NCBI RefSeq assembly: GCF_048403405.1
Contig: NZ_CP183129.1
Source of the DNA: Escherichia coli
Lineage (GTDB): Bacteria; Pseudomonadota; Gammaproteobacteria; Enterobacterales; Enterobacteriaceae
DNA length: 64,000 nucleotides
Strand: one strand, 5' to 3'
A program made the position numbers. Below are positions 33,701 to 63,700 of this stretch, in pieces (the first letter of the stretch is position 1; each line of letters starts with the position of its first letter).

Positions 33701-36700
33701 CAGACAAAAAAATATCCCGGCAGAGCGCGTCAGAAAGCGGGAAATTACGTTAAATCATGATGGCGGTCTCTCGCTTCAGTACGGACTGACCACCACACCG
33801 GTGGTGATGCAACAGTTACCGGATGGGCGGTGGCGTCCGCTCACACCTTAATCCGGAGGCGTGATGCGTAAAAATTCCCTGCTCACTCTTGTCCTGCTGC
33901 TGTTTTCCGTGCCGTTACCGGCTCGGGAGGTGCCGCCGGGCTACCGTGAGGTGGCCCGGCAGGAGAATGTACCAGCAGAAGCCCTGTATTCCCTGGCACT
34001 GACGGAGTCATCCTGGACATTACCGGCACATCACCCGCAGGCCGGTGAAATCCATCCCTGGCCGTGGACGCTGAATGTGGCTGGTAAAGGATACCGTTAT
34101 CCGACACGGCAGGCCGCCTGGCAGGCTTTACAGTCGTTTTTACAGACGACATCCCCCAGACGTATTGATGTGGGGATTGCACAGGTGAACTGGGGCTGGA
34201 ACGGGCATCACTTCCGTTCCGCCTGGGAGGCCTTTGATCCTTATACCAATTTGCATGTGGCCGCCCGCATCCTGCGCCGCTGTTATGAGGCGTCACCGGG
34301 TAGTTGGATCCGTGCCGCCGGCTGTTATCACCATCCGGCGGGCGGTCAGCCCGCAGTACGCTATAAAAATAGTGTCCGGCGTCAGCTGGCGACACTGACG
34401 GGCGGTACACAACCCGTTCCCGCTCATTTACCGGCAGTCAGTACAGATCGGGCTGTATCGTTTGTGTGGATAGAACCGGAGAACAAAACCGATGCGAAAT
34501 AATCCTGAAGAAAAGACAACGCGAGCCTTTTATCCCCTGCCCGTCTTGGGGATGCTGCTGTTTTGCGCAGCCGGCGGCAGTCAGGCGGCATTAACGGTGG
34601 TGGCGGATTATGGCGGGCAACCGGCAGCACCTTTTTATGACGCGATAAATAATGCCCCGAATGAATGGACAGCAAAGCCGGCGTCCCGCCCTCTGCCGTC
34701 CGTGATGGCCCCGTCAATGGTGTTGCCGGTTGAGACACCGGAAATGACGCCGGGGGAGGTGGATGACCGCGTCCTGCATTTACCGGGGATTGGGGCACTG
34801 TATCTGGTGGGGGATGATCCGTTATCCCGGGCATGGCTCACACAGCACGCAGCCCAGCTGAATGCAATGAATGCGGCCGGGATGGTGGTGAATGTGAAAT
34901 CGGAAACCGGGTTACAGGCGCTTCAGGCGCTGGCTCAGGGAGGACTGCTCTCCCCAGCTTCTGGCACCGATTTAGCTCACCGTCTTCAGTTATCACATTA
35001 CCCAGTTCTGATCACGGAAACCGGGTTGACCCAGCAGGTGAAGTAATGTTACCGCCGATATGGCCTTCAGATGGGGTTGACTCCCCGGCATTCTGGTTGG
35101 CCGTGCTGATGTGGTGCGTGTTCTTTGTTGTGATGAGACTCCTGGGGAAAAAAAACCGTCCTGCCCGCCGTCATCGTCACTGTCACGGGAAAGAATCGCG
35201 TGTACCGGAAAAAGAAAATCCGTCAGATCCTCCCTGGGGTTGAGTGCAGTGAGCACATTGTTTTCCGGACGTGTCGGTGAATTTTCAAACAGTGTTTCCA
35301 GTGGAAACGCTGGATGATTTTTGAACACTGTTTCCACTGGAAACACCGGTGAATTTTTAAACACTGTTTTCCGGGGTAACACCAAAAAAGAGTTTGAGAG
35401 AATGAGTGATCGTTATGTGATAGAGGCCTGGCTGCGACCGGCGGTGGAATTGAACAGTGCTCTGGTGTCCGGCGGGGCGGCGTTTGTGTGTGCGGTAGCG
35501 CCCTGGGCAGTGGCATTGTCTCCGTCCGTGAGTTATGTCACCGCCGGTGCGTTTGCCGGTTTTTCCGCATTGCGGGCACATCAGGGATTCCGGGTATTAC
35601 GTTACCGCCGGAATCTCCGGCGTCTGCCCCGCTATCAGGTGACGTCGGCACAGGTGCCGGTCAGCCGGCAGCGTCTGTTTCTGGGAAAAGGGTTTCAGTG
35701 GCAGCAAAAACACACGCAACGCCTGCTGGAAACCCAGCGTCCGGAAGTGGAGCGGTATGTTCAGCCGCCGGCACATTACCGGCTGGCCCGGCAGTTTGAA
35801 CTCCGTTTTGAATCCCGTTTTCCGGCGGTTTGCCGGCTTTTGCAAAAAGACAGTTGGCTGAATCCGGTCCGCCCGCTGACGCCGGTGGGGGGGAATCCGG
35901 TGTTACACGGTGTGGAGCCGGATGAGGTGAATGTGACCATGGATTTGCGTGAACGGGTTGGTCATATGCTGGTACTGGGGACCACCCGTGTCGGCAAAAC
36001 CCGTCTGGCGGAAGTGCTGATCACTCAGGATATCCGCCGGGGGAATATCACGATTGTTTTTGATCCGAAAGGGGATGCGGATTTATTGCGCCGGATGTGG
36101 GCGGAAGCGCATCGTGCGGGGCGCAGTGAGGAGTTTTATGTTTTTCACTTGGGCTGGCCTGATATCAGTGCCCGTTATAACGCCATCGGGCGTTTTGGCC
36201 GAGTATCGGAAGTCGCGGGGCGGGTTGCCGGCCAGTTATCCGGGGAAGGGAACAGCGCGGCGTTCCGGGAGTTTGCCTGGCGGTTTGTTAATATCATTGC
36301 CCGGGCACTGGTTGCTCTGGGGGAGCGTCCGGATTATGCCAAAATTTTACGTTATGTCACCAATATCGGGGAACTCTATCAGACATATTCGATGCAGGTG
36401 ATTAAAGCACAACTACCTGATTTGTTTGCCCAAATCGAGAATGCGCAGAACGCGCTGACGGTCGAGGATGTGCCCCGTCATCTGCAAAGTGATCCGAAAG
36501 CTGTGGCTATCTGGGCAACGGAGCTGGCGTTAAGTAGTGAGAAAGGGAAAAAAATCTATGATCCGATTTTGGACGGGCTGCGCAGTGCGATCCGTTATGA
36601 CCGGACCTATTTTGATAAAATAGTGGCTTCTCTGCTGCCGTTACTGGAAAAACTGACTACCGGAAAAACTGCCGCCCTGTTGTCGCCGGATTACACCAAT

Positions 36701-60700: not shown

Positions 60701-63700
60701 TCACCACTATCTGGCCAATCCCATATCCGCAGAGCAGATTTGCGGCGGATACCCAGATAAACCTATTGTGTTGTGTGATGGCCTGGAGGAAAAACGGCTG
60801 AATGATGGCTCATTATTCACCGACGACGGTGAGGCGCTTTGTTTTAACGGTAATGCGGCTGATGACATGAATCATGAGACGTTTATTGTTCAGCGCGAAA
60901 TCCCCGTAGAGGACTACTGGGATTTCTGCAAGACAGCATACAAACCCTATGACGTGTTTGTAGTCGCGGCATTACTGTTGTTGTACAACCTGTGCCCGGG
61001 ATATTTTTCGGTCTCTTCTGACGGGGATATCCGGGACTGGCAGCCGGTGCTGGACTATGTCAGTCAGGTATTTCCTTATCTTATCCTGACGTTACCGGAA
61101 GGGATAGGTTTACCGGAGGCAGGATAATGGCCAGAGCCTGTACGATACGGGAACTGATAGCGGATTTATCCCGCTGCAATCCGGAGGCATTCGTCTTGTG
61201 TGAGATGTGGTTCCCCGATGATGTTACCTATGTTGATGAAACGGCTTGTCCGGCAGAGACACGGGCAACATTAACGCATGTTGCACATCATTTTGATGCG
61301 GAGCTGGGGATCAACTGGGACACGCTGGCGTGTGCGTTATCGTGTGTCAGAGATGCTGAGCAGAAGGGACTCGATATTTACTTTTATGCCAGTGAAAAGC
61401 GTGGTACAGACAAAAGCCGGATACCCGCCTCACGTTACGCAGAAGCGGACAGCGACGGCGATATTGAAGTCGGGTATTTCCGTAAGGTTAATGCGCTGTT
61501 TAAGTGGGTGCATGACCATATCGGGGCTTTTGAGAACTGTGAAAAGGTGCTGGTGACAGAGGCCCATCTGCGGGCTTTACAGCAGGACTTGCAGGCACTG
61601 ACACCGGAAAACTGTCAGACACGGTTCCCGACCACTGAGGGCTTTTTCTTTGGTTCAACGGCTTATGATGAGGCGTACTGGGCTGATGTGGAAGGCGTCA
61701 GACGCTGGCTGTCAGAGATAACGGAGACGTTTGACTTTGACGCAGAGTCACTGTTTTTTGTGGCCTGGTGGTAATCAGGTAAGGTGTTTCCCCGGGAAGC
61801 ACTGAACACATTTTAATCAGTGTTTCCACTGGAAACGCCGGTTGAAAATTAACCATATTGTTTTTTCACCTGATGGTGTATCTCACCGTCAGGACGGGAT
61901 ACACCTTTTTTATTGAGGGTATTCCGATGAAAAAATCTGACCGTAAACGCCGTCCGGCAGCGGATAAGCCGGTTCGCGATATTTATCAGGAAGTGACTGA
62001 CCGTATTGTGGCCGCGCTGGAAAAAGGCACCCGTCCGTGGAAACGACCATGGCGGCCGTCGGAAGGGACAGGCACCGGTTTTCCGGTGAACGCCCTGACC
62101 GGTCATTCCTACCAGGGGATAAATGTGCTGCTGTTATGGTTGTCGGCGGCGGAGCAGGGCTTTGGTTACGATATCTGGCTGACTTACCGTCAGGCACAGC
62201 AACTGGGTGGCCATGTCCGTAAAGGCGAAATGGCGACGAATACTGTGATATTCAAACCGGTGAAGGTGCCGGCAAAAGACCGTCACGGTGAGCTGCTGCG
62301 GGATGAACACGGTGAGGTGGTGATGACGGAGGTGCCGATGATAAAGGCGAATCCGTTATTTAACATAGCCCAGTGTGATGACCTGCCGGCGCATTTTTAC
62401 GAAAACCGGCGACTACCCGGAGAGGAGACAGCAGGGATAACCCTGCCGGCCACGCACCGGGTGCTGGATATCCTGAATGCCAGCGGCGTGAAGGTGACCA
62501 GTGCGGCGCAGAACCGGGCGTATTACAGTCCGTCACAGGACCGGATTGTGATGCCGCTGTCGTCACAGTTTGACCGGAATGCCGATTACCAGGCCACCTT
62601 ACTGCATGAGTTGGTGCACAGTACCGGTCATCCGTCCAGGCTGGCCCGTGAAGGCATCACCTCATCGTCCCTGAAGTTTGGTGACCCGCTGTACAGTTTT
62701 GAGGAGCTGGTTGCGGAAATGGGCAGCGCTTTTCTTTGTGCGCAGTTAAGCGTCGAGGGAGAAGTGAACCATGAAAGCTATCTTGACAGCTGGCTGCGGG
62801 TACTGAAATCGGACAAAAAAGCGTTGTTCCGGGCCGCCGGGCAGGCCCGCCAGGCCTGTGAGTTTTTACTGAATGTGGCCGCATCCCGACAGGCCGCGTA
62901 GGAGACTGCGATGAACAAAATGACCATTATCCGCTTTCAGTTACTGGTACATCAGTTACTGCAAGTGCATTACGGCATTACGCTGAGTGATACCGGATTG
63001 TCCGATGATGCTGAGGTGTCCCGGATGATTGAACTCGGGATATCGCCGGTATCGGTGGTCAACCGTCTGGTGGATAAGTACCACCTGGATAAACTGAATG
63101 CATCCTGTTATCTGCCGGCATCCCCGTATGTCAGTGACAGCGATGCCTTACTTGCACAGGCTCAGCTGAGCGGTGCCATTAACCCGGATGTCATGCCGGA
63201 TAATCCTTAACGATTAACGACTGACATCTTTCCCGTGAGGGCTTGTTCCTCACGGGATAAGCCCTCTTTTTTATTCTGAAAAGAGGACATCATCATGCCA
63301 AACTGGTGCTCGAACCGACTTGACATCACCTTACACAACGCGGCGGATATGCCGGCTCTTAAACACTGGATATATGCGGATGATGGGATACCCGCCTGGC
63401 AGACGGCGATAGCACAAAGTCTGCATTTGTTGCTGGCCGGCTGCGCGGGGATACTGAAACCGGTCAGACCGCTGTCTTTTCCGCCGTTACCGGAACTGAC
63501 TTCATACGGTGCAACCGGGCCTGTTTCCCCGGGAAACACGGCTTTCACGCACTGGGTTGACCTGCTGATGACTGCACCGGATTTGACACCGTCATGTTGT
63601 CAGCAAATCCATCAGTGGTATCAGATGTGGTTATCTGAAGGCGGGGCGTACCATTCCTGGGACTCGCTGACGGCGACGCAGAAAGCGAGACTGTCCCCGT

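Follow-up and report, generated by a model that had tools for sequence, protein, structure and literature searches.

The stretch of DNA examined here (the window) comprises 64,000 nucleotides of the Escherichia coli contig NZ_CP183129.1 (assembly GCF_048403405.1) and is part of an ICEPm1-type integrative and conjugative element (ICE) of the PFGI-1/pKLC102/ICEclc class (mating pair formation type G, MPF_G). A palindrome with the consensus TGTTTCC-N3-GGAAACA occurs six times in the window, namely three times before traD, twice before ardC and once within a DUF1281 gene. These palindromes are probably bisS-like binding and loading sites of the element's own homolog of BisD, the ParB-like protein of ICEclc. 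The ICE in E. coli HM670 has a length of approximately 93 kb, of which the window covers the middle and the right part, and its traD region was found with 99.9% identity in 13 E. coli chromosomes and with approximately 93% identity in another 13. According to the RefSeq annotation, the element carries a yersiniabactin-like nonribosomal peptide synthetase/polyketide synthase (NRPS/PKS) cargo, taaP, conjugation genes of the TIGR037xx families, ardC, a MOBH-type TraI and an integrase beside tRNA-Phe. A regulatory and maintenance module with parA, dnaB-PI, the genes of a ParB family, a DUF2857, an STY4528-family and a PFL_4669-family protein, and topB is located 15-25 kb upstream of the window start. 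Approximately 47 kb of cargo, including the oppositely transcribed NRPS/PKS cluster, would have to be crossed by a BisD protein sliding along the element.

Palindrome copies in the window

The gene traD (35402-37549, plus strand), encoding the type IV coupling protein of the PFGI-1 class according to the RefSeq annotation of a 99.9%-identical locus, is preceded by a gap of 158 bp that reaches from a conserved small open reading frame (ORF) of 65 codons (35047-35243, plus strand) to the start codon at 35402. This gap is occupied by a repeat array. Three units of 36 bp (35275-35382, minus strand, unit family D1) each consist of an AT-rich 19-bp spacer and a 17-bp palindrome, with the palindromes starting at 35293, 35329 and 35365, which bears out what an initial annotation of this DNA had described. 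Copy 1 (TGTTTCCAGTGGAAACG, 35293-35309) has one mispair at the outermost position, copy 2 (TGTTTCCACTGGAAACA, 35329-35345) is a perfect 8+1+8 palindrome, and copy 3 (TGTTTTCCGGGGTAACA, 35365-35381), which ends 20 bp short of the traD start codon, is degenerate. In the alignment to the 93%-identical relative, the counterpart of copy 3 in E. coli AHB10 is perfect (TGTTTCCCCGGGAAACA). Repeat analysis additionally revealed a decayed outermost unit (ATTGTTTTCCGGACGTG, 35257-35273) located 36 bp upstream of copy 1, where the direct repeat D2 (ACATTGTTTTCCGG) agrees with traD copy 3. The spacers of the traD array are 79% identical to those of the primary array beside bisDC (described below) in reverse complement, compared to 47% in direct orientation, and the traD units are thus reverse-complement copies of the primary-array units. 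The product of the 65-codon ORF, which is conserved in the alignment and listed as a hypothetical protein in AHB10, is small, hydrophobic and basic, and it is annotated in only some genomes.

Upstream of ardC (61927-62901, plus strand; an ArdC family antirestriction protein by RefSeq annotation and sequence), two copies were found instead of the single one reported initially. The distal copy (TGTTTCCCCGGGAAGCA, 61785-61801), the counterpart of which is perfect in E. coli MSI001, and the proximal copy (TGTTTCCACTGGAAACG, 61821-61837) are 36 bp apart, and 89 nt separate the end of the latter from the ardC start codon. A perfect copy (TGTTTCCCCGGGAAACA, 63522-63538) lies inside the DUF1281 gene, approximately 227 nt into the coding sequence. 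The motif is far more frequent than expected by chance, as a scan with TGTTTCCACTGGAAACA allowing up to three mismatches returned 9 strand-matches versus 0.2 expected, and none of 100 shuffled sequences reached 9. The exact string GTTTCC-N3-GGAAAC occurs four times. The association of the motif with traD and ardC is therefore correct, but it is not the full set, since the DUF1281 copy and six copies outside the window have to be added.

With regard to ardC itself, the leader between the proximal palindrome and the gene (61838-61935) has a very stable predicted RNA fold (-39.1 kcal/mol, z = -5.9), in which the Shine-Dalgarno sequence and the start codon lie under nested hairpins, and it contains an internal T-run. 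This fold may provide a translational or attenuation control of ardC that is separate from the palindromes.

Distribution across the element and its relatives

The complete ICEPm1-type element contains six copies beyond the window and thus 12 in total. The primary array consists of three perfect tandem copies directly 3' of the STY4528-family gene, between convergent genes and 2.8 kb downstream of bisD, and a single copy before the PFL_4669 gene (18329-19033 of locus L003) follows 0.9 kb beyond it. A further copy, 52 nt into traI, is the longest version of the motif, a perfect palindrome of 25 bp (TGCGTGTTTCCC-C-GGGAAACACGCA). The motif is hence present at six loci of the element, two of which are inside coding sequence, and most of the intergenic copies are positioned 20-175 bp upstream of plus-strand genes. 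Throughout, the arms are constant and the central three nucleotides vary (ACT, AGT, CCG, CGG or GGT). When the entire 93-kb element was scanned for repeated palindromes, only the TGTTTCC family and the att repeat were returned, and a long-palindrome scan for a separate bisS resembling that of ICEclc found none, only single-copy hairpins and extended versions of the TGTTTCC motif.

In related elements, the sites were recovered in part at the same positions. AHB10 carries seven perfect copies with a period of 53 bp in the slot between the STY4528 and PFL_4669 genes, two copies before topB, three copies (36-bp period) before traD and one before the RAQPRD operon. MSI001, which is 92% identical, has three copies before ardC and retains the DUF1281-internal and the traI 5' copies although their flanks diverge. 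Since the motif is kept at orthologous positions in relatives, at traD in AHB10 and at ardC, DUF1281 and traI in MSI001, absence from such positions cannot be held against the regulatory role that had been proposed initially. In SGI-4 and pKLC102, neither a gap nor a repeat was present before traD, as the pilL-traD operon is uninterrupted there, and a search for dispersed copies in these two elements found none. The traD units sit within an operon that is uninterrupted in SGI-4 and pKLC102, and they therefore represent a lineage-specific insertion and not an ancestral promoter. Other elements commonly have two to four dispersed sites at a distance of up to 10 kb from bisD.

The palindrome of AHB10 is unchanged, and residues 1-205 of its BisD are 90-99% identical to those of the BisD of the window element. 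The diverged parts comprise the BisD C-terminal region (34-55% identity), BisC (70%), STY4528 (68%) and PFL_4669 (52%). A sharp recombination patch between two E. coli ICE variants (L003 12782-19617 versus L004 6189-12440) was also observed. Here, identity falls from 98% to 34-70% from approximately codon 205 of bisD onwards and recovers at topB. The patch exchanges the activator domain of BisD together with BisC, STY4528 and PFL_4669, as well as the type of array (36 bp x3 versus 53 bp x7), and it leaves the BisD DNA-binding domain and the palindrome unchanged.

The BisD homolog as candidate regulator

The initial annotation had named AlpA and small helix-turn-helix (HTH) proteins of the element among the candidate regulators. 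The best candidate is instead a ParB-like protein of 549 aa that is encoded outside the window, approximately 20 kb upstream, beside parA, dnaB-PI and the DUF2857 gene. This ParB family protein is a member of TIGR03764 (ICE_PFGI_1_parB) with a score of 343.7 bits at a cut-off of 143.75, and it is similar in size to the BisD of ICEclc (550 aa). The latter has been described as a ParB-like clamp with preferential binding of cytidine triphosphate (CTP) that loads at two odd-centred bisS palindromes just downstream of bisDC (PMC12409273). From there it spreads over approximately 50 kb. Jointly with BisC, a DUF2857 protein, it co-activates 11 promoters of transfer competence, reaching as far as traI (Antar et al., Nucleic Acids Res 2025, PMC12409273). 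The homolog has the motifs GGNTR and AENEVR at the positions of G92NTR95 and E136NELR140 in ICEclc BisD (PMC12409273), and these GxxR and ENxxR motifs of the CTP pocket are invariant across 56 homologs. The DUF2857 (BisC-type) gene is located downstream of the ParB family gene with a gap of 525 bp between them, and PF11198 is recorded for the corresponding DUF2857 gene in relatives.

A Pfam search with the ParB family protein gave no match even at E <= 10, and a sequence search against the PDB returned nothing relevant. As the sequence searches were uninformative, the fold was addressed with an AlphaFold2 model and Foldseek. The N-terminal domain was modeled with a predicted local distance difference test (pLDDT) score of 84-95, and it matches the structures of Noc, ParB and KorB with a Foldseek probability of 1.00. 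It is followed by a disordered linker (residues 296-415) and a folded C-terminal domain. As modeled, the BisD homolog is composed of an N-terminal ParB-type domain with CTP-binding pocket and HTH, and a C-terminal activator domain.

Two other candidate binders were considered and dropped. The window has a single alpA, which is part of a decayed remnant riddled with insertion sequences (IS) at approximately 3.8 kb, and nothing ties AlpA to the motif. TprA of PAPI-1 is an apparent ribbon-helix-helix protein encoded beside ndpA2, and ICEPm1 is without such a gene pair. The left end of the window (approximately 1-4400) holds a decayed second ICE module, comprising an ardC pseudogene, clbS and DUF2857 fragments, alpA, and IS110 and IS3 remnants.

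Related arrays across the family

For comparison across the family, 80 loci (designated by L numbers) were fetched from genome assemblies via alignment of BisD homologs, and SGI-4, pKLC102 and others were added. At most loci with enough flanking sequence, a 17-bp palindrome of the form TG-N5-N3-N5-CA that is particular to the element is repeated downstream of bisD, usually in tandem with a period of 36 bp and sometimes of 39, 53 or 57 bp. In SGI-4, 11 units fill the STY4528/PFL_4669 slot, and the 36-bp unit is visibly homologous to that of ICEPm1, with arms that are symmetrically changed. The same slot of pKLC102 contains an array of 15 repeats of 57 bp with TGGTGCCACTGGCACCA units, one edge unit of which reads exactly TGTTTCCAGTGGAAACA. 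In the literature, the arrays of pKLC102 and PFGI-1 have been called a putative origin of vegetative replication (oriV), based on sequence features only. They seem to consist of sites of the same type as the ICEPm1 palindromes.

The fixed arms around a free centre, the retention at the same positions in relatives and the symmetric arm variants agree with the earlier proposal of a conserved inverted repeat that would be bound by a dimeric protein and would link traD and ardC to one regulator, although the set of genes concerned is wider than these two.

Several further observations were made on these loci. A 36-bp array of the TGTTGCC type lies inside the coding sequence of the bisD linker region in Pantoea and Enterobacter ludwigii elements (L052 and L053, 10999-11123; L065, 10924-11048), and bisD therefore carries presumed sites for its own product in these elements. 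The STY4528-family gene contains two to four copies of a second palindrome (GAGTTCGGAnTCCGAACTC), the sequence of which hardly varies even between very diverse elements (L005 45282-45441; L007 13790-13851; many of L008-L087). This palindrome is the counterpart of the ICEclc candidate "bisS-3", to which BisD does not bind, and it was not seen as a repeat in the ICEPm1-type element. Inside the integrase-domain gene of the window, three different palindromes (AGCGCCTCAGTAATGAGGCGCT, GGTGCCAGCAGGGCTGGCACC and CGAGCGCTTTCACGAAGCGCTCG) are present within approximately 95 bp (57123-57215), and the arms of GGTGCCAGCAGGGCTGGCACC are composed of GCCAGC/GCTGGC words, as in the SGI-4-type palindrome.

Covariation of the half-site with BisD

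The relation between protein and site was analyzed by comparing residues and bases at 52 loci, each element being paired with its own palindrome. Base 3 of the half-site is A where BisD residue 183 is Gln and vice versa, in 12 of 12 loci, and it is C together with Asn or Asp183 (11 of 11 loci), G together with His183, and T together with hydrophobic or other residues. For base 5, all 33 loci with G have Arg188, and T goes along with Lys or Gln188; the sole exception is L071, an Arg element with T. An unbiased scan of approximately 2150 query-anchored columns of BisD, BisC, STY4528, PFL_4669, DnaB and ParA in 46 non-redundant loci ranked BisD residue 183 at the top for base 3 (0.571; runner-up 0.343) and BisD residue 188 at the top for base 5 (0.801; runner-up 0.624). 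Both residues are part of the predicted helix 183-196, the second helix of the predicted HTH and its putative recognition helix, which follows helix 167-176. The pairings (Arg-G, Gln-A and hydrophobic-T) are chemically sensible.

Two pairs of nearly identical elements make the link between BisD and palindrome without reliance on phylogeny. In the Pseudomonas oryzihabitans loci L080 and L081, BisC is 100% identical, STY4528 99.1% and the BisD N-terminal domain 98.8%, the differences in the latter including K188R, and the arrays read TGATTCC versus TGATGCC. In the HTH region, pKLC102 and PA7 are distinguished by H183P and R188K only, and their palindromes are TGGTGCC versus TGTTTCC/TGTTGCC. A third pair (L017 versus L015) is weak, as L015 has few copies. 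Taken as a computational result, the reading of the palindrome by the BisD DNA-binding domain thus has strong support.

Some observations weigh against BisD as the cognate protein. The covariation statistics ignore phylogeny, and the case is built on few independent lineages and the two strong nearly identical pairs. For bases 6 and 7 of the half-site, no clean mapping to BisD was obtained, the top columns being BisD residue 214 and STY4528 residue 210, and the residue-base code has exceptions in L071, L046 and L020. The site is unlike the bisS of ICEclc (GAGCTATCCCCnGGGGATAGCTC) in sequence, with only the odd-centred symmetry and, in some copies, a G+C-rich centre in common, and the link to BisD therefore rests on protein homology and covariation. 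Moreover, the transfer-promoter motif of ICEclc, a putative BisC box, has a GTTTCC core, and therefore a contribution of BisC at promoter-proximal copies is conceivable. Regarding an effect on transcription, a scan for sigma-70-like promoters beside the traD and ardC copies found none, and the traD units also resemble terminators with a hairpin and a T-run on the plus strand.

Alternative explanations

The traditional reading of the arrays in pKLC102, PFGI-1, ICEHin1056 and SPI-7 is that of oriV iterons. Transferred to ICEPm1, the palindromes would be iterons bound by the STY4528-family "replication protein", and the traD and ardC copies would act as incompatibility or handcuffing sites. The position of the primary array directly 3' of the STY4528-family gene, the putative oriV assigned to equivalent arrays in the literature and the top rank of STY4528 column 210 for half-site base 7 are in line with this explanation. 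However, the label came from sequence features alone, the sites are palindromic and not asymmetric, and the two most variable bases covary best with columns in the recognition helix of BisD and not in STY4528. The L080 and L081 palindromes differ even though their STY4528 proteins are 99.1% identical, and conversely the AHB10 palindrome is unchanged with an STY4528 protein that is just 68% identical. According to the literature, replication of the excised ICEclc needs TraI and oriT1, and an origin would not be expected to have copies within operons and coding sequences. We therefore regard the iteron explanation as very unlikely. A somewhat better, but still small, chance is given to the explanation that the palindromes are classical activator sites, that is, promoter boxes of another factor of the element (BisC alone or BisDC, or the AcaB-like PFL_4669/InrR protein), and do not serve clamp loading. 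The distance of most intergenic copies to downstream genes on the plus strand (20-175 bp) would suit such boxes, approximately 11 BisC-bound promoter motifs of ICEclc contain a GTTTCC core, and PFL_4669 homologs match the Pfam family AcaB (PF08900). On the other hand, the ICEclc BisC box is only weakly symmetric and asymmetric in sequence, whereas the ICEPm1 sites are perfect palindromes. A perfect three-copy array lies between convergent genes, where a promoter is not expected, two copies are intragenic, and tandem arrays of 7-15 units are typical of centromere-type sites. Furthermore, BisC is 100% identical in L080 and L081 despite their different palindromes, and PFL_4669 is just 52% identical between elements with a common palindrome.

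A third possibility is that the palindromes act as single-stranded hairpins, either in RNA as a terminator or attenuator before traD, or in single-stranded DNA as a substrate of the relaxase at an origin of transfer (oriT) or for priming in the recipient. A simple scan does give three matches for a hairpin plus T-run terminator in the traD array on the plus strand, the traD region has a predicted RNA fold of -54.7 kcal/mol (z = -4.0), and the longest version of the palindrome is found at the traI 5' end. Within the ICEPm1 lineage, all arm mispairs are T.G wobble pairs on the plus strand except for one T.T in traD copy 3. This bias was considered as a signature of RNA or single-stranded DNA and is suggestive in that lineage, but it is absent family-wide, where the mispairs show no strand bias (15 G.T, 12 A.C and 27 other). 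In addition, the orientation of the units is inverted between arrays, no T-run accompanies the units with 53- or 57-bp spacers or the ardC, DUF1281 and traI copies, and the T-run of the traD array begins 5-6 nt past the stem. Covariation of the arms with BisD side chains is not predicted by a hairpin, and identical sites at six loci contrast with an oriT, which is normally present once or twice. The suggestion of the initial annotation that the traD array could be part of oriT is not supported in view of the same distribution over six loci, two of them in coding sequence, and of the absence of the repeats before traD in SGI-4 and pKLC102. Structured leading-region motifs are located elsewhere, namely two STAXI motifs with 123 and 112 bits (55958-56115 and 58392-58551, plus strand) and an EFASI motif with 78 bits (56593-56744, plus strand), all in non-coding DNA ahead of the integrase-domain gene and of the small genes that lead up to ardC. 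Together with ardC, this leading-region-like stretch (55.9-62.9 kb) suggests itself as a better oriT candidate than the traD array. Of the explanations discussed here, a function as single-stranded hairpins is the least probable.

The traD and ardC copies are most likely bisS-like sites of BisD that are dispersed among the transfer genes in the manner of the KorB operators on RK2. For the arrays of pKLC102, PFGI-1, ICEHin1056 and SPI-7, the evidence points to BisD recognition sites in preference to replication origins.

Apart from this, the match of PFL_4669-family proteins (L088 13986-14735; L089 14957-15670) to AcaB places them in the family of the transfer activator of IncC plasmids, which suggests that regulation in this ICE family parallels that in the IncC/SXT elements. 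InrR of ICEclc is presumably a member of the PFL_4669/AcaB family as well.

Comparison with known systems

The closest known system is that of bisS, BisD and BisC in ICEclc (PMC12409273), an element of the same ICE family. Both elements encode a ParB-like protein of 549 or 550 aa with GxxR and ENxxR motifs, followed by the gene of a DUF2857 partner. Both have odd-centred palindromes just downstream of bisDC, some of them within coding sequence, and a tie to transfer genes as far as traI. However, the site of ICEPm1 is TGTTTCC-N3-GGAAACA and not GAGCTATCCCCnGGGGATAGCTC, it is present in 12 copies including 36-bp tandem arrays compared to two copies in ICEclc, and copies are also located at traD, ardC, DUF1281 and traI, whereas BisD of ICEclc slides from one end. 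Binding by BisD is a prediction in ICEPm1.

KorB of the IncP plasmid RK2 and its operator OB share the ParB-family CTP-dependent clamp and palindromes that are scattered over replication, maintenance and transfer operons. KorB likewise serves both regulation and partition, and the BisD model has some of its best structural matches in KorB. It differs in that it represses together with KorA, whereas ICEclc BisD activates together with BisC, and in its site sequence and C-terminal domain. The chromosomal parS/ParB system (TGTTNCACGTGNAACA) has a similar outer half-site (TGTTTC/GAAACA), but parS is an even palindrome of 16 bp compared to the 17-bp odd-centred site of the ICE, the protein of which has an extra activator domain. 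The ICE palindromes do not belong to the parS sites, as their sequence changes with the element's own BisD and not with the host. Tandem direct repeats that each hold an inverted repeat and lie beside parA are also known from sopC/SopB of plasmid F; partition by the ParA of the ICE is putative. The arrays of pKLC102 (57 bp, approximately 15-16 copies), PFGI-1 (46 bp x4), ICEHin1056 and SPI-7 occupy the same STY4528/PFL_4669 slot with palindromes of the TG-N5-N3-N5-CA family. Unlike in ICEPm1, the sites of pKLC102 and SGI-4 are not dispersed to traD or ardC.

Proposed mechanism

By analogy to ICEclc, a BisD dimer would recognize both TGTTTCC arms, and the CTP-bound protein would close into a clamp that accumulates on or slides along adjacent DNA. 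BisD and BisC would then turn on the transfer-competence genes, and BisD could also hold or partition the excised element together with ParA. In the ICEPm1 lineage, copies would have been seeded within the pilL-traD operon directly upstream of traD, upstream of ardC, in the DUF1281 gene and at the traI 5' end. With sites at the transfer modules themselves, BisD would therefore be delivered locally and not by sliding for approximately 50 kb across the cargo of approximately 47 kb.

It is possible, though we incline slightly against all of its parts holding together, that the ICEPm1 lineage converted the BisD system that slides from one end in ICEclc into a distributed network resembling that of KorB and RK2. 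This network would have sites at the head of or inside traD, ardC, DUF1281 and traI and, in relatives, also topB and the RAQPRD operon. Across the superfamily (PFGI-1/pKLC102/SPI-7/ICEclc), BisD residues 183 and 188 would set an element-specific "address" that keeps co-resident elements from interfering with each other, with Gln, Asn/Asp, His and hydrophobic residues specifying A, C, G and T at base 3, and Arg and Lys specifying G and T at base 5. The "oriV" arrays would be BisD centromere or loading arrays.

Significance

While the protein-site system of BisD and bisS is already known from its description for ICEclc in 2025, the occurrence of this site family in enterobacterial and pKLC102-type elements appears to be new, as do its equation with the "oriV" arrays, the two-residue pattern and the distribution over traD, ardC, DUF1281 and traI in the ICEPm1 lineage. 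The superfamily concerned (ICEPm1, SGI-4, PAPI-1/pKLC102, SPI-7, ICEHin1056 and ICEclc) spreads virulence, metal-resistance and antibiotic-resistance genes. The control of ICE transfer by a ParB-like CTP switch was demonstrated only in 2025, in a single Pseudomonas element that has two sites. If the palindromes are BisD sites, this mechanism would reach enterobacterial pathogens, and arrays that have been annotated as replication origins for 20 years would receive a different function. The two-residue specificity rule could be checked by point mutation. Clamp-loading sites at individual operons would constitute a natural case that bears on the sliding distance ParB-type clamps need for regulation, and concrete cis-elements for the control of traD and ardC in ICEPm1 would be at hand.

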